64,000 nt of DNA, from IMG/VR virus record IMGVR_UViG_3300011890_000001, positions 32,001 through 96,000 of that record. One strand, given 5' to 3'. The position numbers and the translations under genes are program-made. The notes under the pieces are model-generated. The model was not told the DNA's origin. It saw nothing but the letters and a program-made list of their open reading frames with translations, and made no database searches. This DNA comes from a virus (Duplodnaviria > Caudoviricetes). Positions 5,010 to 63,627 of this stretch are shown piece by piece (position 1 is the stretch's first letter; every line of letters starts with the position of its first letter).

Positions 5010-5125
5010 GTGGATTTAAAAAAATCTCGCAACCATATAGTCGTTGTGAGCAAGAGCAGTAATGTTCTTTGAGCTCATTAAACTCTTTTGTCAAACAAGG
5101 AAATAGTACCATGGCTAAGATCAAG
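5010..5125 (+). promoter_or_regulatory. Putative early promoter/leader cassette, copy 1 (diverged)
   Basis: A-tract-TCTCGCAAC-CATATAG-TCGTTGTGAG...TGTCAAACAAGGA...ATGGCTAAGATCAA, related to 27108-27211 and 62662-62765. Confidence 0.7.
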
Positions 5126-5347
5126 AACTTTGCAGGCGCCACTGTTGCTCACGTGAGCCGCAACAAGTGGCGTTATGTCGCCGGTGTCGCCACTGCCGCT
5201 GTGGCGGCCGGTGCTTACGTGATGTTGCGCAATACCCCGGTCGGCACGGTCGCCGAGGCCGCTGCTGACGCGATGCTGGAAGGTGCGGCCGACGCGGGGG
5301 CCGTTGTCGTCACCGCTGCTGAAGCTGCCGCTGAAGCGGTAGCCTAA
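5111..5347 (+). CDS. small Ala-rich membrane-anchored early protein (MAKIK family)
   Basis: MAKIKNF start, one hydrophobic segment, AAGGA RBS. Confidence 0.7.
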   Translation: MAKIKNFAGATVAHVSRNKWRYVAGVATAAVAAGAYVMLRNTPVGTVAEAAADAMLEGAADAGAVVVTAAEAAAEAVA

Positions 5348-5423
5348 CATGGCCGTGCGTAGGGGCCGCCCCGGCCCCTACGCCGGGGTAAGACGACCGC
5401 CTGAAACAGAAAAGGACGAAACA

Positions 5424-5990
5424 ATGTCCAACAGTTCCCGTTCCTGGGGCGACAGCTTTGAACGTCGCCCCGCTCGCCATCGCGGCGGTCGTTTCCAATA
5501 CGACCATGACCGCGACACCGAAACCACCCTCAACCAATCCCAGAAACGCGCCGCTCGTGGCGCACGCAAGGCCGAACCGGCCGAGGACAACAACATGAAC
5601 AACAACGACAACCTGATCGACCGCGCAGCCGAAGCCGCACACAACGCCGCCGCCGAAGCTGCAGGCACCGCCGAAGAAATCCTGCAGGCCACCGGCCGCG
5701 TGGTCGACGACCTGGCAGAGCAGGCCGCCGAAGCGGCCCGCCAGGAAGAGGCGCGCGCTGAGCGCCTCCGCCAGGACAACGACCGCCTCGAAGAGGCGGA
5801 AGCTCGCGACAACGCAAGGACTGGCGGTTGGATGGGCGGTCTGAAGAAGGCAGCCGGTTACGGCGCTGTCATCGGCCTGGCCGGCCTGGCGGCTTACCAT
5901 GTGGTGAAGCTCGCTGCCCGAGCTACCGCCGGCGAAGCTGCTGCCGAAGCAGCCGGCGACGCAGTGCAAGCTGCGTTCATGGGTCGCTGA
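5424..5990 (+). CDS. hypothetical coiled-coil protein with C-terminal TM segment
   Basis: AAGGA RBS; GYGAVIGLAGLAAYHVV hydrophobic stretch; terminator at 5998-6023. Confidence 0.7.
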   Translation: MSNSSRSWGDSFERRPARHRGGRFQYDHDRDTETTLNQSQKRAARGARKAEPAEDNNMNNNDNLIDRAAEAAHNAAAEAAGTAEEILQATGRVVDDLAEQAAEAARQEEARAERLRQDNDRLEEAEARDNARTGGWMGGLKKAAGYGAVIGLAGLAAYHVVKLAARATAGEAAAEAAGDAVQAAFMGR

Positions 5991-6110
5991 CCTAAACGAG
6001 CGGGGGCCCGAAGGCCCCCGCTCTGGTCGGACGTTATTTTTTTTTTCCTTTGACCAAGTCCGATCTTATGACCTATTCACAATAACCCCTACGACACTGG
6101 GAGTTCTAAC

Positions 6111-7781
6111 ATGCCTCGTATTGTTTTGGAGGTACCTCAGACGTACGAGAATATCGTTCGTCCGGTGGCGCTGCAAGTGGGGCGAGATATCCAAAAGATC
6201 CTCAACCTGCCACATGACACGACCGTGCTTTTTCCCGGTCAAGCAGGCGTAGCCCTTACGGCAAACTCTGCAGTGGGTGAGAAAGACCACCAAGCTGTAG
6301 CTACGTTTGGTCACGGCGCACGTCTGCTGATGGAAGTCTCCGAGCGTCCAGTGGAAGACAGGATTCTTGCAACGGCTGTCCATCAGAAAGAGAACCTTCC
6401 TTTTTTCTTTGACAAGAAGTTGAAGGTTCGTATGTACCCGATCTACTCGGGTACGGAGCTGACATTCAATCTGACCTATCGCGCCCCTAACCGTACGTTG
6501 GCGCGACGCTTCTATGATGAAGTGTTGACCCGAACCGCTGCGGGTCGAGAAGGTATTCTCCATGAGCTGGACTATTGCTACTTGGTGCCCAAGCAGTTTA
6601 TCCAACTGATCGCTCACGTACACACCTTGCGTGAAAACGCGGATGTTGCACCGTACGGTCAAACGCTCGAAGAGTATGCGCGCGAACACTTTGATGCAAA
6701 GGTACGCGACGTAACGGATCTGATTGGCAATGTCTCGTCAGTAGCTATGGGTGAGTTCCAGTCTCAGTCCCAAGGCCACTTCCAGTTTGTTGGCGTGACC
6801 GAAGCAGAAGAGAAAGATAAGGAAAGCGGTACCTATAACGTCACCTTCAGCTATACCTTCACCTTTGACAAAGTGGTTGGTGCCGTAGCTGACTATCCGT
6901 TGCTGGTCCATCAGCAACTGATCGAAGACATTTGGTATAGCGAACCACACGCCAGCGGACAACTGACCGATCCGGCGCGTCGTCAGCGTGCTCCTAGCCA
7001 CTCTCGTTGGGTCTTTGATTATTTCGCCCGTGGGTTGTTTCCGAACCTGTGTCGGAAGCGTTGCATGGACGGTATCGTCATTCCTGAATTCGACGACTGG
7101 TCGGCGGGTGCGGTGATTGGCCCAACCTCTACCGTTTTTGTCGGTATGCTCGGATTGTCCAAGGACGACCCGCAAGCTCTATTGACACTGAGTGAGGATC
7201 TGGGCGGTTTTGAGATCGACGCTGACGTACTAGAGTTCATGCGTAAGGAAGCGCCGTACATGGCCATTGAAGGGCAGTCGGTGTTTAACCTGCGGCTGTA
7301 CGAAGGACCGGATCCCATGGATGACGGTTGTGTCGTTGTAGATCCCGATACCCTGAAGGTTCGTAGTGCGTTTGAGATCGACCTGCGAGAGATCTATCAC
7401 TTGCGGTTGTCGATCGTGCATGATCTGAAGTCCCTGACTCAAAGTGCCTGGGACCGTTTGCGTGGCGGTGGTGTGGCGGCAGTGAAAATTGTCAATGCTC
7501 TTCAGCGCAAGGTCACTAACCAGTACTTCTCACCTAAGCTGCTCAGTGGCTATCTCATCAGTAATGCCGATATGGAGTACATCGCTGAACGGGTGAATCG
7601 CGCCAAGGGTATCTACCACGGCGATCCTGAGTATGTGATGCTTACGGTCAACGAAGTACTAATCGAAGCAGGACGGAGTTCAGAAAATGAGTCTCATCAA
7701 AGCAACACCCAAGGCGCCTCCGGTGAAGGATCCGGTGAAGGTGCACATCCACTCACCCCTGCAGAAGACTGCGACTGTTGA
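6111..7781 (+). CDS. conserved jumbo-phage virion structural protein
   Basis: Long ORF after a TATG late-promoter-like site; first of an overlapping four-gene block. Confidence 0.6.
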   Translation: MPRIVLEVPQTYENIVRPVALQVGRDIQKILNLPHDTTVLFPGQAGVALTANSAVGEKDHQAVATFGHGARLLMEVSERPVEDRILATAVHQKENLPFFFDKKLKVRMYPIYSGTELTFNLTYRAPNRTLARRFYDEVLTRTAAGREGILHELDYCYLVPKQFIQLIAHVHTLRENADVAPYGQTLEEYAREHFDAKVRDVTDLIGNVSSVAMGEFQSQSQGHFQFVGVTEAEEKDKESGTYNVTFSYTFTFDKVVGAVADYPLLVHQQLIEDIWYSEPHASGQLTDPARRQRAPSHSRWVFDYFARGLFPNLCRKRCMDGIVIPEFDDWSAGAVIGPTSTVFVGMLGLSKDDPQALLTLSEDLGGFEIDADVLEFMRKEAPYMAIEGQSVFNLRLYEGPDPMDDGCVVVDPDTLKVRSAFEIDLREIYHLRLSIVHDLKSLTQSAWDRLRGGGVAAVKIVNALQRKVTNQYFSPKLLSGYLISNADMEYIAERVNRAKGIYHGDPEYVMLTVNEVLIEAGRSSENESHQSNTQGASGEGSGEGAHPLTPAEDCDC

Positions 7782-9093
7782 TACGACCTACACGCCGCGC
7801 GCATCGCTGCTTCAGTATGTCGACGGTAGTCGCTGGGAAGTAACTTACTACTCGCAGGTACTGGGTGCAGATAGCGAACCGGGTCCTTGGCAGCTCAACC
7901 GCAGCCCCACTGATCAGCAGTATGCAAAGATCACCCAGTTCGAATTGCTGGTTACTTCACCGCTGAGTCAGCAGGAAGAAGAACCCGGTCGCAGCTTTAC
8001 GGTTACTGGTACGGCCACCATTGTTCCGACAATGAAGGTCAACGTCGGTGACATGTTTACAGCCGACGCCGGTGACGGTCGTGAGGCGCTGTTTGCCATC
8101 ACGCAGGCTGGCCGCAAGACCTACCTGAAGGACTCGGTATTTGAAGTCGAGTACCAACTTGTCGACTATATCGACAATCGTGCAGAAGTAAAGGCCGACC
8201 TGGATCGTAAGTCGATTCGTCGTCTGGTGTACATGAAGGAATTCCTCACCTGGGGTGAAAACCCCATGGTGTTGGAAGGCACTTATGAAGATCTGCTTGA
8301 TCTTCAGCGGATGGAAAAAGAAATCCTGAATTTCTACCTTCGTGACTTCTACTCGTTGCAGCATCGCACCTTGATTATTCCGGGACAGCAGCTTTCTGCC
8401 TACGATCCGTTCATCGTGCGTATGATCCTGGATATGGTTCCGGCTGAAGACCATCCGTTGATTCAGACCATCGCCAGTCCGGTTGTGAAGGCTAACCGCA
8501 ATAGCGGTAGCTACACGGTACTGGATGCCGTCTTGAACGGTAGTGCCAGTTACATGCAGATGGGCGTCCAGTTTATGCGCCTGATGTCTACGTCCTTCTT
8601 TAAGGGACGCCCCGATATCAGTAGCATTTACTACACCGGCATTAAGTTGGTGGCGTGTCCGCTGGATAACCGCACTGACGTGGACGTGGATTACGAAGGT
8701 TCCTTCAATCCGTGTTCTTGTTCGGCGCAGGAAAGTCTGGTGGGCGGTGTCACCTACGGTACCACTGGCACGCGCTGGAAAGACCTGAGTCGCTATATCC
8801 AGTCCACCAATCTCGACGGCTTCTTTATCCCGCCTACTGACGCACAGATGCCCAGCATCGTCCCCGTCACGGTAGACGAGTACTACATCTTCAGTGAGCC
8901 CTTCTATACCCGTCGTGGAGCTTTTAACTCCAAGCTGGAAGTATTGGCGAAGCAACTGATCGACGAAGAAGCCATCGACACTGTCACGCTTGTTCAGCTG
9001 GCCAAGGAATGCCACCGTTGGCCGAACCTGGAGCGCTTCTATTACGTACCCATCTTGCTGGCATTGATCAAGGTGGCCCTGAGGACCAACTAA
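7687..9093 (+). CDS. conserved jumbo-phage virion structural protein
   Basis: 468-aa ORF overlapping the upstream gene; GGAG RBS. Confidence 0.6.
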   Translation: MSLIKATPKAPPVKDPVKVHIHSPLQKTATVDTTYTPRASLLQYVDGSRWEVTYYSQVLGADSEPGPWQLNRSPTDQQYAKITQFELLVTSPLSQQEEEPGRSFTVTGTATIVPTMKVNVGDMFTADAGDGREALFAITQAGRKTYLKDSVFEVEYQLVDYIDNRAEVKADLDRKSIRRLVYMKEFLTWGENPMVLEGTYEDLLDLQRMEKEILNFYLRDFYSLQHRTLIIPGQQLSAYDPFIVRMILDMVPAEDHPLIQTIASPVVKANRNSGSYTVLDAVLNGSASYMQMGVQFMRLMSTSFFKGRPDISSIYYTGIKLVACPLDNRTDVDVDYEGSFNPCSCSAQESLVGGVTYGTTGTRWKDLSRYIQSTNLDGFFIPPTDAQMPSIVPVTVDEYYIFSEPFYTRRGAFNSKLEVLAKQLIDEEAIDTVTLVQLAKECHRWPNLERFYYVPILLALIKVALRTN

Positions 9094-9764
9094 TGAGTTC
9101 GGATGTCATCACAACGTTTATTCCGAAACGACCACCCAAGAGCGAACACAGCGCAGCTTACAAATGCTTCCATTATCGTTGGGAGGCAGCGGTACCGCAC
9201 TCCTTTACCTACAGCGATAACTACATTCGCTTGGTCGGTGTGGTGGCCACCGAAGACGCAGAGTACGATAAGAACCTGCCGAACACCATGATTGGCGGTC
9301 GCTACACGATCGCCGAACTAGCGGCGTTTCTGGACGAAGGTGCCCCTATCCGTATTGAGAACCCGCAGGACGCTAAGGAGATCTACGAGATCATTGAGCG
9401 TTTGTTGGAGGACTGGAGCATCTACGTGAGCCGCGGCAGTAGCTTTGCTGAGATCGAAGCCCCGATTGATGGTCTGATGCGTTTTACTCGCCTGGCCGAT
9501 GAAGTCAAGGTGCATGCGTCGCGCTTCATCAAGCGCCCCCAGGGCGATGGCTTCCTGCAGCGTCGCTTGCGTGGTCTGTTGGCGAACGGCGAAGTCGGTT
9601 TGCTGCAAAGTCGCCGTGCGTTCCGTCACTTTAAGCCGACGGAGGACGACAAGCAGAAGCAGCTGGAGAAGGATCGGGAGTCAGTACGTGCAGCCACCAA
9701 CCGCCACACCAAACATGTGGACGTGCTGCTACGTGGTCGCGGAGGGGATAGCGAATGGAGCTGA
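9093..9764 (+). CDS. hypothetical (probably virion/late) protein
   Basis: TAATG coupling to the upstream gene. Confidence 0.6.
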   Translation: MSSDVITTFIPKRPPKSEHSAAYKCFHYRWEAAVPHSFTYSDNYIRLVGVVATEDAEYDKNLPNTMIGGRYTIAELAAFLDEGAPIRIENPQDAKEIYEIIERLLEDWSIYVSRGSSFAEIEAPIDGLMRFTRLADEVKVHASRFIKRPQGDGFLQRRLRGLLANGEVGLLQSRRAFRHFKPTEDDKQKQLEKDRESVRAATNRHTKHVDVLLRGRGGDSEWS

Positions 9765-11113
9765 GAGAATCACCACTCTGGAATGAAGTGGAAGCCATTG
9801 CGATCAGTAATCAAAAGATCGTACCAACGCGTTCCTTCCGAGCCCACTTTAAGGTAGGTGACGATCGAACGATCACCGCGACTAAAGTGATCTCCTGTGA
9901 GTTCTTCCGTGACTTTAAGGGCGCCTACGCTGATGAGGTGTTGTTGGAAGTGGCGTTCCCTATGGGTACGTTCCATTACGACATTTTCCCAAAGTGCAGG
10001 GACATTGAAATCACGCTGGAGTACCAAACCGTTCTTCCCAACGCTACTGATGACCTTGCTGCGTTGGAGATTCGCAGTCAGAAGTTTGTGGGTACGCTGC
10101 TGGATAAGTCCTCCAGCAGTGTAGTCGGTGCCAATATCTCGGCGGCCTCGCGTCGAGCGCTCGACATGCAAGGTCCGGTGACGGTAACCTTCCAGCTGTT
10201 GCATCCTGCACTGCGCGATATCCGCCTGCGTTCGGTGGGTGGCATTATCCGCAATACAACGCCTGCTGAGATCCTGAGGTACATCCTAACGACCGTCAGT
10301 AACGGACAGCAGTTGTCCGAAGACACGAAGGTCTTAGGTGTGGAAATGGTGGAGCCCAACAACACGGACGAATACTCCAACGTTGTTATTCCGCACGGAA
10401 CCAGGATCCAAGATATCCCTCCGTTCATCCAGAAAAAGGTCGGTGGCATTTATTCCACTGGCTTGGGGACTTATCTATATGGACAACACTGGCACGTTTA
10501 TCCTCTGTTTGACCTAACGCGCTTTGATAAAGCACGGCGAACTCTGACGATTATCAACATCCCAGAGAACGCAATGCCTGGTATAGAACATACCTACCGA
10601 ACGACTGCTAACCAAGTCATTATCCTGTTGACCGGTGCTGTGAAGCATTTTGATCTGACGGAGAATGCGCAGCTCAATCTCGGTAACGGTGTTCGATTCC
10701 TCGATGCGCGTCGCGTCGTTGACGGGTTCGTTGACGCCGCAGAAGGTGACAACAAAGCGGTGGCTAGTCGCGCAGAAAACAATCAGGAGTTCCTGGTTGA
10801 GTCGCGAGACGATAACGTCAATGCGGTGGTTACATCGCAAGCGCGTATCACAGCCAACACCTTCGAAGAACACTCGAAGTTGTCAAAACGCCTCGGTGCA
10901 GAAATTCAAGCGCTCTGGGAGAACTCAGACATCGATCTGATTGAACCCGGGATGCCCTTGAAGTTTTTGTATCTGAAGGACGACCGAGTCGCTGAACTGA
11001 AGGGCGTGGTGCTGGGAGCCCAGACCTACGTTCAGACGTCCAGCGTCGGCGTTACTGATCAGAGATATCGTGTTGATACCGCGCTCCACCTTTTTGTGGA
11101 ACGTGAAAGCTGA
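9755..11113 (+). CDS. virion structural protein, possibly baseplate hub-like
   Basis: 452-aa beta-rich ORF in the late operon; GGAGG RBS; hub assignment is inference. Confidence 0.5.
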   Translation: MELRESPLWNEVEAIAISNQKIVPTRSFRAHFKVGDDRTITATKVISCEFFRDFKGAYADEVLLEVAFPMGTFHYDIFPKCRDIEITLEYQTVLPNATDDLAALEIRSQKFVGTLLDKSSSSVVGANISAASRRALDMQGPVTVTFQLLHPALRDIRLRSVGGIIRNTTPAEILRYILTTVSNGQQLSEDTKVLGVEMVEPNNTDEYSNVVIPHGTRIQDIPPFIQKKVGGIYSTGLGTYLYGQHWHVYPLFDLTRFDKARRTLTIINIPENAMPGIEHTYRTTANQVIILLTGAVKHFDLTENAQLNLGNGVRFLDARRVVDGFVDAAEGDNKAVASRAENNQEFLVESRDDNVNAVVTSQARITANTFEEHSKLSKRLGAEIQALWENSDIDLIEPGMPLKFLYLKDDRVAELKGVVLGAQTYVQTSSVGVTDQRYRVDTALHLFVERES

Positions 11114-11137
11114 CTTCCAATAAGGAGAAATACAAAG

Positions 11138-11665: not shown

Positions 11666-11685
11666 TACCGCCTCCGTAAGGAATA

Positions 11686-11730
11686 GCGGCATAAAGCCCC
11701 CTCCCTTCGGGGAGGGGGTCTTATGATGCC
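11686..11730. terminator. Bidirectional terminator between convergent genes
   Basis: GCGGCATAAA-ccccctccc-ttcg-gggaggggg-TCTTATG. Confidence 0.8.
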
Positions 11731-11737
11731 AAATTTT

Positions 11738-12333: not shown

Positions 12334-12455
12334 GACCAAACTCCAATGCAGGGGTAGAAATCTATAAGATGACGTATTCTTATACGGCGAAGTTTCTTGC
12401 TATGTATTGCGTCTAGGCTTGCCTGCCGCTCAAACTGAACAAGGAACACGATCCA

Positions 12456-13157: not shown

Positions 13158-13169
13158 CAAGGACTACCG

Positions 13170-27107: not shown

Positions 27108-27211
27108 TAAAAAAATCTCACAACCATATAGTCGTTGTGAGCAAGAGCAATAATGCGATTGCCAAACCCTGTCAAACAAGGAGCAATACCGTGGCTAAGA
27201 TCAAATCTTTC
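27108..27211 (+). repeat. 104-bp promoter/leader/N-terminus cassette identical to 62662-62765
   Basis: Direct comparison from TAAAAAAATCTCACAACC to GTGGCTAAGATCAAATCTTTC. Confidence 0.9.
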
Positions 27212-27448: not shown

Positions 27449-27522
27449 GGTAATTCTCGTAGCCCATTCGAGAGAGTGGGCTATCGGAAATACTTTACCC
27501 CTGTCAAACAAGGATTATGTAA

Positions 27523-29157: not shown

Positions 29158-29204
29158 CAGCATATGGCCCCACACCTGAAAGGGTGTGGGGTTATGTGTA
29201 TTAT

Positions 29205-29238
29205 AAATATTTTCAGAACCATATAGTGGCTGTGACGT
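29205..29238 (+). promoter_or_regulatory. Putative early promoter (ACCATATAGT core)
   Basis: Same core as 5031, 27122, 35309 and 62676, each upstream of a + strand small-gene cluster. Confidence 0.6.
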
Positions 29239-29676: not shown

Positions 29677-29807
29677 TCGCCGAACTGTAGACGGCAGCCC
29701 TTACCGGCTGCCGTCTACTTATGCTGTCGATTCCCCATACCCCTACACCGGTGGGGTTATTGGGAAACGACAGTTTCACTCATCCATGTCAAACAAGGAG
29801 TTTTACC

Positions 29808-35291: not shown

Positions 35292-35328
35292 AATAAAAAA
35301 ATCTCGCGACCATATAGTAGCCATGAAC
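35292..35328 (+). promoter_or_regulatory. Putative early promoter
   Basis: A-tract-TCTCGCGAC-CATATAGT. Confidence 0.65.
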
Positions 35329-35363: not shown

Positions 35364-35576
35364 GTGGACAAGCGTAGTGAATTGAACCAAGCGATCCGTC
35401 GCCTACCGCGCCCTCTGGCGCGTGAGCTAAAGTACTATCGTGACAAGCTGGAACGCAATGCCAAGAAGCGCGGCGCGTTCCTCAACGTCAAGAAGTCGCC
35501 CACCGGTCTGTCGGTGGAGGCTGAGGATACCGTCGAGAAATGTCTCGAATGGATCCACGAACACACCAAGCAGTAA
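35364..35576 (+). CDS. small basic hypothetical protein
   Basis: AGGAGG RBS before GTG. Confidence 0.65.
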   Translation: MDKRSELNQAIRRLPRPLARELKYYRDKLERNAKKRGAFLNVKKSPTGLSVEAEDTVEKCLEWIHEHTKQ

Positions 35577-35613
35577 CCTCTCTCTTCGTCCTCTGTTAAA
35601 CTCAGGAGTTGAT

Positions 35614-35973
35614 ATGCGCAAGATCGTTTCCGGCCTCGAAGGTCAGGCACTCAATGTACTCTTTGAAGACGCCCACCGCCTTGGCACGTCGCCCGACATC
35701 AATGACCTGTCCGGGTTGCTCTGCTCGGTGCGGTTCGCCAACCTCGCCCCGGCGAACTATCGATATTCCAGTCGCCATTACGACGTTCTGATCGTCAGCG
35801 ACGGCTGGCGGTCGAAGTTCTACGTCCGGAATCAGTTGGGCTACTGGGCCCAGGTTGGTAGCTTCGACGGTCAACGCGAACTCTCTCGCCACGTCGGCCC
35901 CGCCGCCCCGCCGTACCAGGCTCGCTTCGTGCGAGTCCCCACCCCTCACGTGGAAGTGCATATCCACGTATAA
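35614..35973 (+). CDS. hypothetical protein
   Basis: AGGAG RBS. Confidence 0.65.
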   Translation: MRKIVSGLEGQALNVLFEDAHRLGTSPDINDLSGLLCSVRFANLAPANYRYSSRHYDVLIVSDGWRSKFYVRNQLGYWAQVGSFDGQRELSRHVGPAAPPYQARFVRVPTPHVEVHIHV

Positions 35974-36071
35974 GAAGTCTAATCGAACACCTTCGCTCCA
36001 CATCGGGGTGAGGGTGTTCTATTTAGATTTTTCCCCGCAGTAACCTTCCCTGTCAAACAAGGAGCAATACC

Positions 36072-36380
36072 ATGAACGTCGATACCCTGCTGGCCACCCT
36101 GATCCTCTGCGCCAACATTGGCGCAGCTGTCTTTTCGGTAGTTTCTGTTCTCTCTGACCGCCGTGATCCGGAGGCGTTGATCGCTTCGGTACTGCCGCTG
36201 TGGGCAATTGCCCTAACGGTGGTAGTGGCCGTTGGCTTTGCGCTGGCCATGACCACCAAAGACCTGTACTATACCGCACTGGCCTCGGTGGCTGGCGTTG
36301 CCGTCTACGCCTGCGTGGCTGTTTGCCTGCAGCGCTATATCGTAGCCCGTCTGTCGCAGTACGGCTACCGTCTGTCCTGA
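36072..36380 (+). CDS. 3-TM membrane protein
   Basis: Three hydrophobic helices; leader shares CCCTGTCAAACAAGGAGCAATACC with the cassette. Confidence 0.7.
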   Translation: MNVDTLLATLILCANIGAAVFSVVSVLSDRRDPEALIASVLPLWAIALTVVVAVGFALAMTTKDLYYTALASVAGVAVYACVAVCLQRYIVARLSQYGYRLS

Positions 36381-36442
36381 TTTATAGAAGTTGTACCCCG
36401 GGACACGAAGTCCCATTTTCCTTGTCAAACTTGGAGCTTAAG

Positions 36443-37384
36443 ATGGAAAAGGTTGTAATCGTTGGTCTTCGGCCGCGTCAGCTGACCGAAGTGGTTAACA
36501 AGAAAATCACCCACAACGGCGAGCGTATTGAAATCGCCGGCGTGGTGCCGGAAGAAGCCACTCCCGGCGTGGTGGCACGGGCCTGCAAGGGCGCAAACCG
36601 TGTCATCGTCATGACCGGTCACGTGCCCACCCCGGCCGCCGATGCCGTACCGGCCGCCCTGCGTACCAATATCAGCGGTGCCGCCTCGGCGGTGGTTCGA
36701 CAGCTGACCAAGTGGTACGGTGAGCCGCACACCGTGATGGCGGCGAAAAAGTCCGCCAGCAAGAACGTGACCAAGGTGGTCGCGCCGACCAAGTCGGTCA
36801 CTGGCCCGGCACCGCGTCTGAAGCGTACGGACTTCCAGCTCGGTGCGATCATGCCCGAACTGGTCGGCCTGAAACTGAAGACCGAAATCCCGGAAGGTCA
36901 TGACAGTAAGTATGACCCGAAGGACTTCGAGGCGCTCGCCCCCATCGTGCCGCACGGCGACCTGGTTCCGGCCACGGTGCACTGCAGCGCGCCGAAGATG
37001 CGACTGCTCAAGCCGGCAACCACTCCGGCGCCGGTTTGGGTTGAACGTGTGTCGAAGTATCTGCACCACCTCCACCTGGCAACCGGCCGCGTGTATGAGG
37101 TGCATTACTTCGCCGACTACACGGACATCCTCTGGGTGGACACCATCGACTGGGCAGAGCAGGCTGCTTTCAGTGAAAGCATGCAGACTGCGCCTGAGCC
37201 GGCGACCGAAGTGGTCGACACGGATCATGCCGACAAGCTCGCTAACTACAAGTCGGATGACGATGTAGAACGTGAGCTCTGGGCCGACGTCTACGTCACT
37301 ACCTATCAGGACACCCGTAGCGCAGCTGCGGCCCTGAAGGAAGCTGACGAGGCTCTGGCACAGTTCCGCAAGCGCTTCAGCTGA
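36443..37384 (+). CDS. hypothetical protein (paralog of 49733-50869)
   Basis: Shared N-terminal alpha/beta start and C-terminal W..VY...A..A..A helix. Confidence 0.65.
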   Translation: MEKVVIVGLRPRQLTEVVNKKITHNGERIEIAGVVPEEATPGVVARACKGANRVIVMTGHVPTPAADAVPAALRTNISGAASAVVRQLTKWYGEPHTVMAAKKSASKNVTKVVAPTKSVTGPAPRLKRTDFQLGAIMPELVGLKLKTEIPEGHDSKYDPKDFEALAPIVPHGDLVPATVHCSAPKMRLLKPATTPAPVWVERVSKYLHHLHLATGRVYEVHYFADYTDILWVDTIDWAEQAAFSESMQTAPEPATEVVDTDHADKLANYKSDDDVERELWADVYVTTYQDTRSAAAALKEADEALAQFRKRFS

Positions 37385-38967: not shown

Positions 38968-39695
38968 TGTAGAACTACCTTCAGTTCGCCAGTAAGTTCG
39001 GACATCGATAAAGCTAGCCTTAGCGGTCAGCGTATCCGTTATGTTCCCTCTGAATAACGAAGTCGGCGGTTCTACTCACGCACGCAGCCCCTTGAGGTGA
39101 TCACCTCAATGTTACAGTTAGATCCTAAGAATACGCGGGATCGTCAAGACCCAGAACCGGCCAACGCAACATTGCGCTCGCCGTCTGCGTTAGTTGGACT
39201 GTAGCGTTAAAGCACCAGTGTGTGCAGACGTTTAGGTTCGCCTAAGCGGCCACTTAAGGGGTTGCGTGCGTAACCAGTTTCAAGAAAGTTGTACGTTATA
39301 GATCGCCAGCGATGCTTCTTTAACGTACAGTGCGGGGCCAGGGTGATGGTGACGACGAGTCCCCACCCAGATACAGCCTCTACAGTCGCGTGTACTAACG
39401 GTGAGACGCGACGAAGTATTTGGAGTCATCGTTTCTTTAAGGGGTCCATAGTGACAACTTAATTGTATTCGATATCGCAGACGAAACCGTATGGGCTCCA
39501 CGATCGGGGGTCAAGTTGTAGTTCTTTTTAGGACGTGCAGCCTACAGACCATTCGGTAACTTCGCCTTTGTGCGGAGACTGAGTGGTCTGTGGGGTGTAG
39601 GCCTGTGTAGCCATCACCTTCGGGGTTGTTGACGTGGACGTAAGTCTACGGAGCTTCTTGGTGACCCTAGGGGGCTTCGGCTCCCTAGGGTTTTT
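38968..39695 (+). ncRNA. large structured non-coding RNA candidate (~720 nt), family unassigned
   Basis: No credible ORF; more than 10 helices, whose G-U pairs work only on the + strand; UUCG/GNRA loops; ends in a UUCG terminator with U-tract. Confidence 0.7.
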
Positions 39696-39811: not shown

Positions 39812-40315
39812 GTGACTGAATCCCACGAGCTCAAGTACCATCCCATGCAGTTTACTCTGCCGGCATATATCGCGTGGATCGAGGCCGAGGGGTTCGTACC
39901 GGACCTCACCATCAACGTCATCCATCCGAACGTGATGGTGCCCGAGCGTATCCTCCCGAAGAAGGCTGATCAACTTCTGATCCTGAACCTGAGCACCGCA
40001 GCAATCAGCGGCGTGGACTACAACGTGGAAGGCGTGTCCTTCAGCGCACGTTTCGGCGGTAAGTCGGAAATGGTCTTCATTCCGTACCAAGCGATGGGCG
40101 GTCTGCGGATGCGCGGCTCTAACCACTACGTTCCGCTCAACCCGGTTGCACTCGTCGCCCGTACGGTTGAAGAGTTTGGCGAGATCGTCACTTCGGCCGA
40201 CCATATCGCCAGGCACAAAGATTCGGACAAGACCGACAACAGTCAAGACAAAACCACGCCGATCGAAAGCCGTGACGGAAACGTCATCGTTGGCAATTTC
40301 GGTCGCAAGAAGTAA
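39812..40315 (+). CDS. sspB: SspB-family ClpXP adaptor
   Basis: AYIAWI...P.L.I....V.VP....ILNLS.AAI......GVSFSARFGG....FIPY.AM. Confidence 0.85.
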   Translation: MTESHELKYHPMQFTLPAYIAWIEAEGFVPDLTINVIHPNVMVPERILPKKADQLLILNLSTAAISGVDYNVEGVSFSARFGGKSEMVFIPYQAMGGLRMRGSNHYVPLNPVALVARTVEEFGEIVTSADHIARHKDSDKTDNSQDKTTPIESRDGNVIVGNFGRKK

Positions 40316-41260: not shown

Positions 41261-41314
41261 TCCACTCAGCGGCCGGTGTCAAACGCCGGCCGCTTTGCTT
41301 CAAGAGGACAATCC

Positions 41315-43945
41315 ATGAGCCAAGATGATCAGAGCATCATCCAGGTCAATCTGGAAGATGAGATGCGTAGGAGCTACCTCGACTACGCAATGAGCGTGAT
41401 CGTTGGCCGAGCTCTTCCCGATGCGCGCGATGGCCTGAAGCCGGTACATCGTCGCGTTCTGTATGCAATGAGTGAGCTGGGCGCTCATTCCAATCGCCCC
41501 CACTACAAGTCGGCACGTATTGTCGGTGACGTGATCGGTAAGTATCACCCGCACGGTGATCAGTCTGTCTACGACACGCTGGTGCGCATGGCTCAGCCTT
41601 TCTCGCTGCGCTACATGCTGGCTGATGGTCAGGGTAACTTCGGTTCGGTGGACGGTGACTCCGCCGCAGCAATGCGCTACACCGAGGCACGCATGTCTCG
41701 TATGGCCCATGAGCTGATGGCTGACCTGGACAAGGAAACCGTCGACTTCCAGCCGAACTACGATGAAAAGGAAAAGGAGCCGACGGTCATGCCGACGCGC
41801 TTCCCGAACCTGCTCATCAACGGTACCACTGGTATCGCAGTGGGTATGGCTACGAGCATTCCGCCGCACAACATGTCCGAGACCATCCGGGCGTGTATCG
41901 CACTGATCGACAATCCGGAGATCTCGATCGCCGACCTGATGGACTATATCCCCGGTCCGGATTTCCCGACTGGCGGTATCATCAACGGCACCTCCGGGAT
42001 CATCAACGCATACCACACTGGTCGTGGTCGTGTTCGCATTCGTGCCAAGGCGACGGTGGAAACCAACGAGCGTGGTCGCGAGTCCATCGTGGTTACCGAG
42101 CTGCCGTACCAGGTCAACAAGGCACGACTGATCGAGAAGATCGCCGAACTGGTGCGTGAGAAGAAGATTGCAGGTATCTCCGAACTGCGCGATGAGTCCG
42201 ACAAGGACGGTATGCGTGTGGTGATCGAAGTCAAGCGTGGCGACGCGGGCGATATCGTACTGAACAACCTGTACGCCCAGACGCAGATGGAGAACACCTT
42301 CAGCATCAATATGGTGGCGTTGGTGGATGGTCGCCCGATGACCATGAACCTGAAGCAGGTGCTGGAGACCTTCGTTCGCCATCGGCGCGTGGTGGTTACT
42401 CGCCGTTCTATCTTCGAACTGCGTAAGGCGCGTGAGCGTCTGCACCTGCTCGAAGGTCTGACGGTGGCCCTGTCCAATATCGACGAAGTGGTGGAGATCA
42501 CCAAGACGTCGGCCACCACGAACGAAGCGCGTCAGCGACTGCTGGAGCGCGATTGGGATCCTGGCGACAACGACTGGCTGCTCAGTGCACCCAAGGAAGC
42601 GCAGCCTGATGACCTGCCGGCTGGCCGAGGCATGGTGGATGGCCGCTATCGCCTGACCGACGTGCAGGCAACTCAGATCCTGGATATGCGACTGCACCGT
42701 CTGACCGGTCTGGAGCGCGACAAGATCCACAACGAGTACCGCTCGCTGTTGGAGATTGTCCAAGATCTGATCAGTATCCTCGTGAGTCCGGACGTACTGA
42801 TGGCGAAAATCCATCAGGAGCTGGAAGAAACGCTGTCTGAGTTCGGCGACGAACGACGCAGCGAGATCCGTCAGAGTGAAGAAGATCTGGACACCCTGGA
42901 TCTGATTCCGCCGGAAGAAGTCGTGGTCACGATGTCCTCGTCAGGCTATGTCAAGCGGCAGTCGGTTTCCGACTATCGTGCGCAGCGCCGTGGCGGTCAT
43001 GGGCGTTCGGCCGCAGCGACCAAGGAAGACGACACCATCGAGCAACTGTGGACGGTCAACACCCACGATACCTTGCTGGTGTTCACCAGCGCCGGCCGCG
43101 TGTTCTGGTTGCCGGTGTATCAGCTACCGGACGCAGGTTTCAACTCGCGTGGGCGTCCGATCGTCAACTGGATTGCCTTGGGTCAGGATGAGAAGGTGCA
43201 GGCGGTGCTGCCTGTCCGGGACTACAGTCCGGACAAGTACGTGCTGTTTGCGACAGCGGGTGGTACGGTCAAGAAGACGCCGCTCACTGAGTTCGCTTTC
43301 CGTCTGGCTCGCGGTAAGATGGCTATCAGTCTGAACGAAGGTGACTCGCTTGTCGGCGTGGCTCTCACCAACGGTGATTGCGACGTGCTGATGTTGGCCA
43401 CCAACGGTAAGGCCGTGCGCTTTGCTGAGTCCAACGTTCGCTCCATGGGTCGTACGGCCACCGGTGTTTGCGGCATGAAGCTCTCTGGGCACGCCCGGGT
43501 GGCTGGCATGATCGCCGTCAACGACAAGGCCGTTATGGCTCAGGTCGAAGGCGTCGAGCAGGACGAAGAAACCGCCAGCGAGCCGGTGAACGACGCCGGT
43601 CCGTTTGTCCTCGTGGCAACAGAGAACGGCTACGGTAAGCGTACTCCGTTGTCGCACTTCCCGCGCAAGGGCCGTGCAACCAGTGGTGTGATCGGTATCC
43701 AGACTACCGACCGTAACGGTCCGGTGGTTTCGGTGCGTCTGGTTGAAACCAATGACCACGTCATGTTGATTACCGACAGTGGTCGACTGGTGCGTACGCA
43801 GGTGGAAGGCATCTCCTGCGTGGGGCGCAACACTCAGGGTGTCACGCTGATTCGTCTGAAGGACGATGAGCGTCTCCAGGCGGTCGAGCGTATCGACGGC
43901 AACCTCATCCCGGTTGACGTACCGGAAGAAGTAACCGAGCAGTAA
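41315..43945 (+). CDS. gyrA: DNA gyrase subunit A
   Basis: [29 protein letters not shown] (catalytic Tyr), GyrA-box QRRGGHG, beta-pinwheel repeats; GAGGA RBS before ATG 41315. Confidence 0.97.
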
Positions 43946-49565: not shown

Positions 49566-49713
49566 GTGCGCCTGCAGTCACTGAGATCGAAAACGGTGGA
49601 GACGGAAATGTCTAAGAGAGCAATGAGTTATAGGGCTTATTGCCGCGGCTGCGACTAAGTAGCGCCCTGAAGCGTACACACTTTTAACCATCACGCGCCC
49701 GTCAAACGGGCGC
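49566..49713 (+). ncRNA. multibranch structured RNA candidate in the leader of 49733
   Basis: Closing stem 49574-49579/49647-49652 with three internal hairpins, then a GTCAAAC hairpin. Confidence 0.4.
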
Positions 49714-49732: not shown

Positions 49733-50869
49733 ATGTTTACTGTTGGTATCTTTGGTCTGACCGACGCCGAATTTGCGAAGTTCCCGTTCCAAGTCTTCAA
49801 TGTCGAACTGGTAGGGTACCGCGGTAACATGCGTGACGTCATTGCCGTCAAGCACTTCTTGGCAGACGTAGACGAGGTAGTGACCCTCACCACGCGCGTT
49901 CCGTCTTCACTGAACCTGTCGCTGCGTGGAAAGAAGAATATAGGCATGGGTGGTGATCTGTCGGTCTCCGACATCGTCAATCGTCTAGCCGATCGTTACG
50001 GCTTTAAGGGCAACGGCACCGCTAAACGTGAAGAAGTCAGTCCGGAAGAAGCGGTCCAGACCGAAGTGGTCAGTGCCGCAGTGGTGTGCGAAGCAAGCGA
50101 GGTTACTGCAACGAAGGGGTCGGTATCTGACCCCGCAATGACCGAGGTCGACTGGATCTCCGGCTGTGGCCTGGCTGGCTCGTTCAATGCGACACTGTTC
50201 TTCGTTAAAGACGATTTCTCGAAGCTTACCCAAAACGTATTGCCGATGGGCGGGGTTGCTCGAAACGGTGGTCGTTACCAGGCTCTTGAAAATGCAAGGC
50301 CCGGCATGCTTTTTGTCACCAGCATGGACTACTCGGACAGCGAGAGCAATAAGGTCGCTCTGAGAAAGGCCGTATACCTCACACGCTATGTGATGATGGA
50401 AGCCTCGCGCAAAACGGGGTATGTGGTTGAGTCCTACTGGTTTGCGAACGCGAAGAAGGTTTTCTATTACGTGACTTCGATACCCTACGCGAAGGAGCGG
50501 ACGGTCCTGAAGTCCTATGACCGTGATGAGATGTTGCGGCGCGCAGTAAACGACGCGCCGGTCCAGGTCATGCACAAAGGTACGGGTAGTCCTCCTCGCT
50601 TTAACGCCCGCATCCAAAATAACATCAATAAGCTTGCGGCCGAATACGGACTGACTGCCGATGACTCCGCCGCACCCGACACTGATTTCAAGTCGAAGTT
50701 GGTGCAAAACACGGAAGTGTCCGTCATCAAGCCGAGCGCCCCCTCTAAACATGTTGAGTTTTGGAAGGCCGTCTACTTGGCTGAATTCACTCACTCGGGC
50801 AGCACCGCAAAGGCTACCGAAGCCGCTACCGCCGCAGTCAAGGATCTCGAATCTTATTTGATGTCATAA
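49733..50869 (+). CDS. hypothetical protein (paralog of 36443-37384)
   Basis: TAAGGA RBS; C-terminal EFWKAVY...ATEAATAAV. Confidence 0.65.
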   Translation: MFTVGIFGLTDAEFAKFPFQVFNVELVGYRGNMRDVIAVKHFLADVDEVVTLTTRVPSSLNLSLRGKKNIGMGGDLSVSDIVNRLADRYGFKGNGTAKREEVSPEEAVQTEVVSAAVVCEASEVTATKGSVSDPAMTEVDWISGCGLAGSFNATLFFVKDDFSKLTQNVLPMGGVARNGGRYQALENARPGMLFVTSMDYSDSESNKVALRKAVYLTRYVMMEASRKTGYVVESYWFANAKKVFYYVTSIPYAKERTVLKSYDRDEMLRRAVNDAPVQVMHKGTGSPPRFNARIQNNINKLAAEYGLTADDSAAPDTDFKSKLVQNTEVSVIKPSAPSKHVEFWKAVYLAEFTHSGSTAKATEAATAAVKDLESYLMS

Positions 50870-53281: not shown

Positions 53282-53329
53282 CCCAAGTAATTTAAAGACC
53301 GTATCATCTACCTGTCAATCAAAGAGGAT

Positions 53330-53530
53330 ATGTCAAACATGTCAATCAGTCGCGCCGCTGGCGTTATCGTCCTTGTGCTTGTGCGTACCTTCTATGTGTT
53401 CATGTTTTTGTTGGCCGCATTGATGGTTGTTGCCGGCACGGCCATCGAATACAAGGACGTTTTCCTTTCCCTGCTGGTCCCGGCGGTAACGCTGTTTCTC
53501 TGTGACAGGTTTTTCAAATGGAAGATGTGA
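53330..53530 (+). CDS. small 2-TM membrane protein
   Basis: GAGGA RBS; two hydrophobic helices. Confidence 0.6.
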   Translation: MSNMSISRAAGVIVLVLVRTFYVFMFLLAALMVVAGTAIEYKDVFLSLLVPAVTLFLCDRFFKWKM

Positions 53531-54057: not shown

Positions 54058-54091
54058 AGGCGGGCATTTCGCAGTAGAGGAGTAAGCCCCC

Positions 54092-57501: not shown

Positions 57502-57560
57502 CCCTACCGCCCCCCACCCTTCGGGGTGGGGGCTTTATGCCGCGCGTTAAGGAGATAATC

Positions 57561-58076: not shown

Positions 58077-58120
58077 TTTATCACACCGTACTTCCCATCT
58101 TCAACTAACGAGACCGCACT

Positions 58121-58672: not shown

Positions 58673-58740
58673 GCGGTTAGTTTTAACGTACCGGAATAAT
58701 CGAATGTAACGGCACGTTTCGTTGCCTAAGGAAAGGAACA

Positions 58741-60459
58741 ATGGCAATTAAAATTCAGCAGCGCGAGATCCCCGACTACGACAAGTCGGCCTGGCCCGTC
58801 AACGTGCCTGAGGTCATCAGGAATATCTACGCCAGTCGTAAATGTAGCGACCCCAAAGGCGTTGACCTGCGTCCGAACCACCTGATTCATTGGAAAGAAC
58901 TTGGTGGTATTGGGAAAGCCGCCAAGGTGATCGGTAAGGCTATCCTGAACCAAGAGTCCATTACGATCTCAGGCGACTACGATTGTGATGGCGCTACTGG
59001 CTCTGGTGTACTCTACCGTGGCCTGCGTCTGTTGGGTGCACATAACGTGCGCTACATCGTACCGAACCGCTTTGTACACGGCTATGGTCTGTCACCGGAA
59101 CTGGTGGACGACATGGACACCACTACCCAGTTGATCGTCACGGTGGACTCGGGCGTTTCCAGTGTGGACGGCGTCAAACGCGCCAAAGAGCTGGGACGTA
59201 AGGTAGTGATCACCGACCATCACCTCCAAGGCGACGTGCTGCCCGACGCAGATGCGCTGGTGAACCCTAATGTCATCGGCGACCCGTTCCCCTCAAAGGC
59301 GCTAGCTGGCGTGGGTGTAGCGTTCTACGTGATGTTGGCTACGCGGGCTTGGTTGCAGTCAGTGAGTCCGCCTGAGAAGGCTTATCCGGACCTGGCCGAG
59401 CTGTTGGATCTGGTGGCACTTGGAACCATCGCTGACCTAGTGCCGTTGGATCACAACAACCGCATCCTCGTGGCTATGGGCCTGCGTCGCATTCGTGCAG
59501 GTCGCGTCTCTCCGGGTCTGCGGGCACTGATCGAGAAAGCCGGTAAGCGGCTGGAGGAACTCACCGCTACCGACTTTGCCTTTGCTGTGGGGCCGCGTTT
59601 GAACGCAGCTGGTCGTATGGAAGACATGACCATCGGCATCCAGGCACTGATCAGTACGTCCCCCGATGAGATCGACCAATACGTGGACATGCTGGAGTCC
59701 ATCAACGACTCCCGTAAAGAACGTCAGCAGGAGATGATCAATGAAGCAGAAGCGGCACTTGTCGAGACAGGCGGTTCTGACACTGGCCGCTTTGGCGTCG
59801 TGCTCTATCGCCCCGACTGGCACTCGGGAATCGTTGGGCTCGTTGCGTCGAAAGTTAAAGATGCTGTCTATCGGCCCGTCGTCGCCCTCGCCCCAGCCGA
59901 AGTTGGATCTACGGAAATTCGCGGCTCCTGTCGTTCGATCGAAGGGTTCCACCTACGAGACGCTCTTGCGCTCGTTGACGTCCGCAACCCAGGCCTGATG
60001 AAGAAGTTTGGCGGTCATGCCATGGCCGCTGGTCTGAGCTTGCACGCCGACAACGTGGAGCGTTTCAAGGTTGAGTTCGACAAGGTGGCTGAAGAGCTGC
60101 TGACTGAAGACCTCCTCAATGCGACGCTGACTACCGACGGCCCTCTGCCGGTTGGGCACCTGACCACTGAGTTTGCGGATCTGTTGAACTTCTATGGCCC
60201 GTGGGGTCAGGGCTTCCCGATGCCGTTGTTCGAAAACGAGTTCATCGTTGAAGAGGCGACAGTGCTGAAGGAGAAGCACCTGCGGCTGACGTTGATTGAT
60301 CCGCGCGACGGAGCGTCCATCAAGGGGATCTATTTCAATGCGCCGGAGCACAACCTGCCGGAACGCGTTCGTGTCGTTTACGAACTGAACGTGAATGTTT
60401 ACAAGCAGTGGCGTAATCCGCAATTGATGATCCGTCACATCGAGTATCCCAGCCAGTAA
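58741..60459 (+). CDS. recJ: single-stranded-DNA exonuclease RecJ
   Basis: GDYDCDGAT, PNRF..GYGL, TVDSG, TDHH, GPRLNAAGR, GGHAMAAG, PWGQGFP. Confidence 0.96.
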   Translation: MAIKIQQREIPDYDKSAWPVNVPEVIRNIYASRKCSDPKGVDLRPNHLIHWKELGGIGKAAKVIGKAILNQESITISGDYDCDGATGSGVLYRGLRLLGAHNVRYIVPNRFVHGYGLSPELVDDMDTTTQLIVTVDSGVSSVDGVKRAKELGRKVVITDHHLQGDVLPDADALVNPNVIGDPFPSKALAGVGVAFYVMLATRAWLQSVSPPEKAYPDLAELLDLVALGTIADLVPLDHNNRILVAMGLRRIRAGRVSPGLRALIEKAGKRLEELTATDFAFAVGPRLNAAGRMEDMTIGIQALISTSPDEIDQYVDMLESINDSRKERQQEMINEAEAALVETGGSDTGRFGVVLYRPDWHSGIVGLVASKVKDAVYRPVVALAPAEVGSTEIRGSCRSIEGFHLRDALALVDVRNPGLMKKFGGHAMAAGLSLHADNVERFKVEFDKVAEELLTEDLLNATLTTDGPLPVGHLTTEFADLLNFYGPWGQGFPMPLFENEFIVEEATVLKEKHLRLTLIDPRDGASIKGIYFNAPEHNLPERVRVVYELNVNVYKQWRNPQLMIRHIEYPSQ

Positions 60460-60530
60460 ATCAGTTTTGAGCCCGAGCTTTGAGTTCGGGCTTTCTTTCA
60501 AACGTTCGTCATTTCATAAAGGAGCAACAC

Positions 60531-60830
60531 ATGTGTGGTCTTTGCAATAGCCGTAATGGCGGTGGTGGCAGCGGTGGCGGTATCGCTGGTCTTTTCATTG
60601 CTCTAGCGCTGGTTATCCTGGTGTTGAGCCTTAGCGGCTGCAGTGCGGCGGTCCACGCGGAAACCGGACCTTCTCTGGCGGTCGGCAATAACAACGGTCA
60701 TTTTGAGGTCAGGGACATGGGTGGTGGTGTGACGCGCTACTACGACGGTGAACTAGGTATTGCCTGCTACAATCTCCGGCATATTGGCTCGCTTGGCTGT
60801 GCGGCCGTACACGAGAGTTCCGTGCGATGA
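60531..60830 (+). CDS. putative lipoprotein/exported protein
   Basis: AAGGAG RBS; hydrophobic stretch ending in LSGC. Confidence 0.6.
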   Translation: MCGLCNSRNGGGGSGGGIAGLFIALALVILVLSLSGCSAAVHAETGPSLAVGNNNGHFEVRDMGGGVTRYYDGELGIACYNLRHIGSLGCAAVHESSVR

Positions 60831-61369
60831 ACGGACATCAAAGTAAACGTATTGGTCGAGACGGCAGAATCAATTCGGTGTATTTGAGCAATCTTCGACG
60901 CCGAAAGCAGGGTGTTTACTCTGCCAGTTACGACGATAAGTCGTTTGTGTTCGACTGCCCGCCGTTGGATTGTTTTACCGATCTCGAACTCGAATACCTG
61001 ACGCTGAACGGCCTGGCGGTCATCACGCTCATTTCCATCCGAGACGGCGGTCAAACTGACAGGATTGAGCTCAAAGTCGATCCGCTGCGCCCCGGCCAAG
61101 GTTTGCGCGGTGCAAAAACCTGGATGGCCGTCCACTACATGGCGATGCACTGCGATAAATTGCAGACGACGGTCGCCAACTTGAAACCAACGGCCCGCGC
61201 TCGCAATAAGTTGGCCCCAAAGTCTAGAAAGACCGACCCGCGATTTGTCAGCTTGCAGTCAAAGTCGTTTGGTAGAAAGGTGTTCGATTACGCCAATACT
61301 TCGGCACATAAGGTCACCTACATCCACGATTACCTGGAAGACACGCTCACCAGGATCCCCAATGATTAA
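60827..61369 (+). CDS. hypothetical protein
   Basis: ATGA coupling. Confidence 0.6.
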   Translation: MNGHQSKRIGRDGRINSVYLSNLRRRKQGVYSASYDDKSFVFDCPPLDCFTDLELEYLTLNGLAVITLISIRDGGQTDRIELKVDPLRPGQGLRGAKTWMAVHYMAMHCDKLQTTVANLKPTARARNKLAPKSRKTDPRFVSLQSKSFGRKVFDYANTSAHKVTYIHDYLEDTLTRIPND

Positions 61370-61496
61370 CGAAGAACGCGAGAACTGGCGGGCGTTTAAT
61401 TTCAACAATAACGAATATCCAGCCAGAGATAGTTCTTTCCGTAATGACGACTGGGGCTGAGCCCCGCCGGCCATAGAAAAAAAAAAGGAGATAGAA

Positions 61497-62600
61497 ATGA
61501 CGGGCATTAACTTTGACCCCATCACCGCCAAAGAAGTCGAGATGGGTTCGCGCCCGCGCGTCCCACCGACTGCAGCACCTGAGCTGGAAACGCCACCCAT
61601 CTACGTTTACGATCCGACGTCGCCCAAGGAAAACAACGAGACCTTCTTCATTCGGCCGTTGACCGGCCGGGCGGATGCGGCTACATTGGAGACGGGGCAG
61701 TACGAGGATTTCGTTGCAAAGGTGGTGTTTGCCGCCAAGCTCGACGAGCTACCGCCCCACAACCGTGCTATTGTGCGACTGCGTTACGAGCACATCGAAG
61801 GCCGGCATCCGGTTGAAGTGATCGTGCGTACAATCGACCAGGCCATGCGCGGTCCGGGCTATCGCGTTTTCCATGCGCCGCTGGTGATCGACATGGTCGG
61901 CCTTGAAGCGCACCATGCCTACGCTGTCTACGCAGAGATCGCCAATGAGTTCAAGCGCTGCATGGTTGTTCCGACTGAAGGCGTTTACGTCTACATCAAC
62001 GGTAACCTCTACGCAGACGACCTCTCACGACGTGTGAGTGAAGCCGCGCGCGTCTATCACAGCATGTCTTCGAATCATCGCTGGGTGGACGAGATTTCTG
62101 GATCCCTTCTTTCCAGAACCTGCGTTGTGCGGTTGATTGACGATTTGATTGGCGATCGCATTACTCTGGAACAGAAGGTCAACTGTATGGCGCTGCAGAT
62201 CGAAGCATTGGAAGCGAATCAGAAATCACCCCCGCAGTCAGTGGGGGTGATTGAAACCGACGCCCTGTCGCCGGAAGAAGACGCCGCCCTGGTCGCGGAG
62301 CTGGAAGCCATGGGTCGCGAAATGGATGAGCGCGAGCTACGTTTCCGGACTGCGGACGAAACGACGAATGATGAATCCGACGAGGACGCTCCATTTGATG
62401 GATCCGACGAGGACGTTCCATTTGAAGTTCCGCGGATGCCGCTGATTCAGACTGAGGACCAGCTGGCTGCTGCTCTGGCAGAAGTTGAAAAACTCCGTCA
62501 GGACAACCAGACCCTCAATGAACTGACGGCTGGTTTGCGGGATCGTTTGCGCCGGCTGGAGGATTCCACTCGGATCGGTACGGAGACGTCCGGCGGTTAA
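61497..62600 (+). CDS. hypothetical protein with C-terminal coiled coil and acidic repeat
   Basis: AAGGAG RBS; near-perfect 27-bp tandem repeat encoding SDEDAPFD/SDEDVPFE. Confidence 0.7.
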   Translation: MTGINFDPITAKEVEMGSRPRVPPTAAPELETPPIYVYDPTSPKENNETFFIRPLTGRADAATLETGQYEDFVAKVVFAAKLDELPPHNRAIVRLRYEHIEGRHPVEVIVRTIDQAMRGPGYRVFHAPLVIDMVGLEAHHAYAVYAEIANEFKRCMVVPTEGVYVYINGNLYADDLSRRVSEAARVYHSMSSNHRWVDEISGSLLSRTCVVRLIDDLIGDRITLEQKVNCMALQIEALEANQKSPPQSVGVIETDALSPEEDAALVAELEAMGREMDERELRFRTADETTNDESDEDAPFDGSDEDVPFEVPRMPLIQTEDQLAAALAEVEKLRQDNQTLNELTAGLRDRLRRLEDSTRIGTETSGG

Positions 62601-62661
62601 GTGACTGCCCCCCACCCTTCGGGGTGGGGGCTTTATGCCGTCCTTTATTTTTTAGTGGATT

Positions 62662-62765
62662 TAAAAAAATCTCACAACCATATAGTCGTTGTGAGCAAGA
62701 GCAATAATGCGATTGCCAAACCCTGTCAAACAAGGAGCAATACCGTGGCTAAGATCAAATCTTTC
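62662..62765 (+). repeat. 104-bp cassette identical to 27108-27211
   Basis: Direct comparison. Confidence 0.9.
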
Positions 62766-63006
62766 AGCAAGTCGGCACGCATCGCCCACGGCGCTAGCGC
62801 AATCGTCACCTTCGGCGGTGCCGTCGGTGGCGCCTACGGTGCGCGGCACTTTTTCGAACGGGCCATCACCAACGCGGTGGAGAACAACGCGCCGGCAGCT
62901 GCCGGCAGCTGCCGGCAACTTCTTCGCCGGCCTGCTTTGCACGAAGGCTGTTTTTGATCTGGTCGACGTGACTGTCGACCACCTCGACATCGCCGTTACT
63001 GGCTAA
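62745..63006 (+). pseudogene. MAKIK-family gene frameshifted by a 10-bp tandem duplication
   Basis: GCCGGCAGCT x2 at 62891-62910; removing one copy gives an ORF ending at 63006, next to the RBS of the following gene. Confidence 0.6.
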
Positions 63007-63017
63007 GGAGTAATAAC

Positions 63018-63266
63018 ATGGCAAAGATCAAATCTTTCTCGCAGACGTCTCCGGCCCGCGCACTCATGATCGGCGGTATGGTTGGTGGCGGCTCAGTTGC
63101 CGCCGCTGGTCTTTCAGAAGTCTGTGCTGACCCGTCCAACGTGGTCGGCTGGGTAAGGCTGGTATCTGGTACTGCGGTCACCGCAGTCAGCCACACGCTG
63201 CTCGGAAAATCCTATCACGCCGAGGGCTACGCCTTCGGTCGCAAAGTCAACCAGGAGGTGGTCTAA
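63018..63266 (+). CDS. small Gly/Ala-rich early protein (MAKIK family)
   Basis: TAAGGAG RBS; MAKIKSFS start. Confidence 0.7.
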   Translation: MAKIKSFSQTSPARALMIGGMVGGGSVAAAGLSEVCADPSNVVGWVRLVSGTAVTAVSHTLLGKSYHAEGYAFGRKVNQEVV

Positions 63267-63529
63267 TGGGTCTCTTCACGAAAAGTCTGGCCACCGGGAT
63301 GTTGGTGGCTAGCGCCGCGCTGGTTCGCGGTGGGGTCAATGACATTTCCGCCGGTAACGCCGTTGTCGGTGGTATCAAAATCGCTGCAGGTGCTGTCACC
63401 TGCGGCATCGTGACGGGTATCACAACCTGCATCAACTACACCTGCGGCGCTGCCAAGGGCGCCGCCGCAGACCTGGGCGATACTGTCGCGGATGCGGTCC
63501 GCGACGGTGTTGACCGCTACACGACCTGA
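63266..63529 (+). CDS. small hydrophobic Gly/Ala-rich protein
   Basis: TAATG coupling; AGGAGG RBS. Confidence 0.65.
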   Translation: MGLFTKSLATGMLVASAALVRGGVNDISAGNAVVGGIKIAAGAVTCGIVTGITTCINYTCGAAKGAAADLGDTVADAVRDGVDRYTT

Positions 63530-63627
63530 CGATCTTCCCACTGCCCCTTCTTCGGAGGGGGTAGTGTGGAGCAAGTCGCTCCTTTAATCCTATCACTTAC
63601 TCCTGTCAAACAGGAAAGGAATTTACA

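Follow-up and report, generated by a model that had tools for sequence, protein, structure and literature searches.

The 64,000-nucleotide stretch of phage DNA analysed here (the window) comprises bases 32001-96000 of the 269-kb record IMGVR_UViG_3300011890_000001, which is about 90% complete; coordinates are window positions unless marked as genome. It carries a recurrent RNA element, the loop GUCAAAC or a close variant between arms that can pair, and this hairpin lies next to the ribosome-binding site in about 14 genes, most of them early. We lean towards reading it as an mRNA operator whose folded form would be bound by a phage protein, switching off the translation of early genes. One of these genes encodes a candidate RNA-binding protein, and distant relatives of that protein often keep a similar hairpin before their own gene; together this suggests an undescribed phage translation switch.

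The heptamer GTCAAAC is present on the plus strand, in the expected flanks, at all 11 places listed by the initial annotation, which overlooked GTTAAAC at 35595 and GTCAATC at 53314; two further copies lie outside the window (genome 19730 and 96079). Its proposed enrichment at start codons is borne out: of the 68 copies in the genome, 13 lie no more than 45 nt from a start, compared to 1.2 expected (p=3e-10), although genes were called with a simple in-house caller and start positions therefore carry some error. The pattern GTYAAWC occurs 13 times at -25 to -19 (0.52 expected; column shuffle maximum 4), and GTCAAAC is among the top upstream words genome-wide after removal of duplicates. No peak at start positions is seen in the opposite orientation, and hairpin-form copies are not enriched in coding sequence, standing at chance level away from starts (16/145, ~14% expected). 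Upstream regions are also enriched for two other words, TAATCGA (10 copies against 0.7) and ACCTCCTA/CCTCCTAC, which resembles the 16S anti-Shine-Dalgarno tail.

The phage encodes chimallin (E=4e-28) and a PhuZ tubulin and is a nucleus-forming jumbo phage. Among named phages, the Xanthomonas phages LucasX and RTH11 are closest to it (mean protein identity ~45%), and two sister phages at 65-94% nucleotide identity were found in Logan assemblies SRR33746293 (contigs L095, L100, L101 and L270-L272) and SRR7193024 (contigs L096 and L102). The description of the element as phage-wide was too broad; it marks a regulon of mostly early accessory genes within one third of the genome, and most of the target genes are missing from four outgroup phages. 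Exact-pattern scans of viral and metagenome collections returned unrelated chance matches only, and the five-base loop form is not enriched in RTH11, LucasX, two IMG/VR genomes or 26 helicase loci. The regulon was not seen in five host-family genomes, so its reader is likely phage-made.

Loop and stem structure

The loop had been drawn as a CAA triloop closed by U-A and G-C pairs, a geometry not supported by orthologous or equivalent starts in relatives, which carry GUCAAUC, GUUAAAC, GUUAAUC, GUAAAUC and GUAAACC; the U-A pair is thus not required. The invariant bases are G, U, A, A and C alone, and judged from these sequences the element has a loop of five bases with a closing G-C pair, which, being invariant, has no covariation support of its own. 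The lower stems were said to pair despite their differing sequences; stems are uninterrupted in five of the 11 (5086, 41268, 49695, 53327 and 63601), and the other six have a 1x1 or 2x2 mismatch adjoining the loop.

The Shine-Dalgarno sequence (SD) forms the 3' arm in eight copies, not seven as previously counted. All copies are on the plus strand, and those of this SD class lie at 5086-5100 (loop at -21 of gene 5111; orthologue on L272 with GUAAAUC), 27167-27181 (-20 of gene 27191; kept in L100), 27499-27513 (-20 of gene 27523; GUUAAAC in L100), 29783-29799 (-20 of gene 29808; kept in L095), 35590-35606 (GUUAAAC, -19 of gene 35614; GUCAAAC in both sister phages), 36046-36064 (-20 of gene 36072; GUCAAAC in L095, GUCAAUC in L096), 62721-62735, and 63601-63615 (-23 of gene 63628, with a perfect 6-bp stem). 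Two copies had been annotated as belonging to an identical repeat and not independent; the 27167 and 62721 leaders are near-identical duplicates, matching at 101 of 104 nt, and the 5086 leader is a third paralogue. At gene 53339 two loop copies stand in tandem, both kept in L101: a poorly paired GUCAAUC before the SD (53314-53320, at -25) and a 7-bp hairpin with the AUG in its 3' arm (53327-53343).

Pairing was compared over 25 sites, some of them orthologues and not every row independent. The third pair from the loop forms in 23 of these sites and the fourth likewise in 23, each with several pair types, and the two positions nearer the loop are often mismatched; these values were matched by none of 500 shuffles. 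The case is weaker within the SD class. Its stems have folding energies of only -1 to -7 kcal/mol, an arm-swap test within this class gave p=0.07, and at ordinary starts genome-wide the same register is paired in 38% of cases (22-23% in neighbouring registers). Given the arm-swap result and the background pairing, we regard the SD-class hairpin as likely but marginal.

An unlikely but still the most credible alternative is a linear translation-initiation motif (an enhancer, or a protein-binding site in single-stranded form) that was disseminated as leader cassettes were copied, with the weak stems a by-product of C-rich leaders and an AGGA SD. Pairing only modestly above background in the SD class, the visible leader duplications, and unpaired copies at 53314, at 63246 and at the DNA polymerase start all speak for it. 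However, the same loop caps stems of -16 to -23 kcal/mol at gyrA and gene 49733, where it cannot be single-stranded and where compensation is seen, and outgroup copies sit in perfect stems. The polymerase copy (genome 251311) is not conserved, forms no hairpin and is treated as doubtful; GTCAACC at 63246-63252 (-20 of gene 63266) has no pairing 5' arm and is possibly degenerate.

Four further candidates were rejected. An antisense sigma70 promoter (TTGACA on the minus strand) has a -10 box at 16-18 nt with only 2-4 of 6 matches. For a template-strand DNA hairpin, in which C.A mismatches become G.T, G.U pairs elsewhere favour the plus strand, and transcription beginning behind it would yield an mRNA without the SD. 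Base-pairing to the 16S rRNA 5' end is broken by the variants, and strong stems hide the arms. For the 38968-39695 RNA as a trans partner, duplex energies equal those of shuffles.

Early genes, gyrA and gene 49733

Five elements in the window, all on the plus strand, resemble the AT-rich early promoter class of phiKZ (PMC8244752), to which they are tentatively assigned; they lie at 5018-5042 (an A-tract plus ACCATATAGT), 27109-27133, 29204-29228, 35295-35319 (heading the gene run 35364-36443) and 62663-62687. The RNA element is found in 11 of the 20 genes within 1.5 kb of six such promoter-like elements vs 4 of 233 other genes. Genes 5111, 27191, 62745 and 63018 each encode a small, hydrophobic, Ala/Gly-rich protein that begins with MAKIK. 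A duplicated promoter-leader cassette with the element is common to three of them; the fourth lacks it.

This early-gene bias recalls T4 RegB (PMC9409239), and the strong hairpins are located between cistrons, as might be expected of a phage endoribonuclease site that either inactivates early mRNAs or is cut in the loop to free the SD and separate cistrons. We consider this improbable, since hairpin-form copies outside starts are not enriched, no nuclease family was found among the small proteins, and the autoregulation-like signature described below points to a binding-type fold. The bias, together with the chimallin of the phage, could also fit an export or localisation tag on early mRNAs leaving the early vesicle or the phage nucleus, or else a site for an activator. 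A tag would have no need to sit at -20 or to pair with the SD, though, and nine of the 20 early-unit genes have no element and four other relatives no regulon, making this the least probable of the readings weighed. Of the three roles originally offered, translational switch, processing site and sorting tag, the first is favoured over the other two by the SD-fixed position, sense-only strand, lack of coding enrichment and covariation across loci.

A 12-bp hairpin (41268-41294; z=-4.1) ends 20 nt before a full-length, host-like gyrA (41315-43945, plus strand). Its product shares ~70% identity with the GyrA of Stenotrophomonas, which makes a member of the Xanthomonadaceae the probable host. Host-type gyrA is common to both sister phages and absent from the four outgroup phages, and as none of 80 host gyrA leaders has the motif, the element appears to have been added after gyrA was captured. 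In L095 the gyrA hairpin has a different stem sequence that is still fully paired, with a GUCAAUC loop, the best single case of compensation. An 8-bp hairpin (49695-49713, identical in L102) ends 19 nt before gene 49733 (49733-50869, plus strand), a paralogue of the candidate reader with matching N and C domains (E ~1e-5) and no detected middle domain; in its L101 orthologue the strong hairpin is lost and an SD-class GUAAACC copy stands in its place. An sspB-like gene (39812-40315) has a copy of the element in L095 only.

Short U-rich tails follow the gyrA and 49733 stems. These tails, the sense-only orientation and the precedent of T4 gene e (PMC3014915) would suit a DNA promoter inside an SD-masking or terminator hairpin, with read-through RNA masked or stopped and initiation within the loop giving an open mRNA. 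Yet there is no shared upstream element, neither the phiKZ early nor the TACT middle type fits, four copies already have an early promoter of their own 40-60 nt upstream, the masking stems are not strong enough, and the L095 gyrA stem has no U-tract; we give this arrangement little credence, slightly less than a cleavage site.

A candidate reader

If any one gene is to be named as encoding the reader of the operator, our tentative choice is 36443-37384 (plus strand, 313 residues), whose product is predicted to bind RNA. It has a three-part layout: an N-terminal DUF2325-like Rossmann/flavodoxin domain, a middle alpha/beta domain resembling YhbY/CRM, and a C-terminal helical hairpin. Foldseek and Atlas matches are dominated by the N-terminal domain. 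The middle domain shares alpha/beta topology with YhbY/CRM (PDB 1jo0) across 81 residues and is likewise found in tandem repeats, but with 5% identity, no Pfam profile match and other flanking domains. The gene has the element on its own leader (36418-36436, at -19; kept in L095 and L096). A hairpin is conserved at this place in 3/3 of the clade and in 4/8 distant orthologues; a related tetraloop form precedes the orthologues in RTH11, LucasX, G001 and L104. Directly upstream of the RTH11 orthologue, a gene (L113, RTH11 90855) has a G-UCAA-C hairpin, possibly a first step of regulon spread, and in a more distant phage a Sigma70_r4 helix-turn-helix (HTH) gene lies directly upstream of the homologue (L105:9561-9944).

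Protein 35614 gave a poor model and no lead as reader. No CsrA was found in this ~90% complete record by a search whose control matched in three genomes; a RegA search gave no match, its control being silent too. No HTH reader is among the families listed for phage proteins (25 of 32 families in one listing), and the one PHROG 'DNA binding' match, genome 12797, falls in a probable ferritin/Dps-like gene (genome 12479-13213). Elsewhere, sister contig L096:2203-5283 encodes a 1026-residue SNF2 helicase with a weak LAGLIDADG match, probably an intein, and genome 98856-101195 (L174:6856-9195) is a 779-residue clade-specific gene whose start presumably resembles bacterial topoisomerase I.

Under the operator reading, a phage protein would recognise a UHAAH loop that is closed by G-C and carried on a short stem, and as at two genes this loop sits on very stable stems, the reader must accept the folded form. 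SD-class stems would be too weak to block ribosomes alone, allowing early proteins to be made at first; as the reader accumulates it would clamp the hairpin shut across the SD or AUG, turning translation off. In the SD class, folding covers the SD, from which we reason that binding would repress; in a simple clamp model, SD access fell at some sites only. At gyrA and 49733 a stable stem would hold the loop where the ribosome footprint ends. The operator may have originated in autoregulation of 36443 and later, within this clade, have reached early accessory genes and the captured gyrA. The initial view of one RNA-level regulon at translation starts in a compartment-forming jumbo phage survives here, without its triloop and its firm pairing at every site. 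It is conceivable, and we put it just below our choice of reader, that 36443-37384 and its relatives form an undescribed jumbo-phage RNA-binding family recognising G-UHAA(H)-C hairpins, autoregulatory in LucasX- and RTH11-like phages and a global repressor of early-gene translation in this clade, its operator standing even before a captured host gyrA, so that the birth of a regulon could be traced.

Comparison with known systems

The element would provide a defined RNA site, with a named candidate protein, for early-gene switch-off in nucleus-forming phages. To our knowledge shut-off of early protein synthesis has not been described in these phages, and we found no translational operator for them in the literature. 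Because versions occur in two cultured phages, LucasX and RTH11, the proposal is testable without isolating this phage, and it may offer a compact protein-RNA switch for synthetic use. The initial annotation did not recognise the hairpin as a described element; consistent with this, no Rfam cis-regulatory family matches at gathering score and no paper was found.

CsrA/RsmA proteins bind many targets at small hairpins over the SD that display GGA in the loop; here the GGA is in the stem with its GG paired. The closest layout is that of the start-associated sequences (SAS) of Cluster K mycobacteriophages, an unexplained 13-mer with AGGAG inside (PMC3203893), present in 11-19 copies per genome in one orientation at the ribosome-binding sites of non-structural genes, with symmetric outer bases, and absent from the host. 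Our element is likewise multi-copy, in one orientation, at starts of non-structural genes and absent from the host. It does not match the 13-bp consensus GGGATAGGAGCCC, however, and differs in its conserved loop 5' of the SD, covarying stems, strong upstream forms and candidate reader, which may give start-associated phage motifs their first protein lead since the SAS report.

In T4, gp43 autoregulates through a hairpin upstream of its own SD with a conserved loop containing a UAAC core, and RegA represses ~30 mRNAs at their starts through unstructured, AU-rich sites (PMC3014915). The hairpin with conserved loop is shared with the former, and the control of many mRNAs at their starts would be shared with the latter, but gp43 has a single target, the RegA site is unstructured and overlaps the AUG, and both protein folds are unrelated to that of the candidate. 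Aca1 and Aca2 are phage proteins that bind 5'-UTR stem-loops, block the ribosome and autoregulate early genes (PMC13551039), as proposed here; they are HTH proteins with a DNA inverted-repeat operator, whereas this phage has no listed HTH family and no shared DNA operator was found. The element would work like T4 gp43/RegA or Aca2 control, with an SAS-like layout, and by the tests run is a member of none of these systems.
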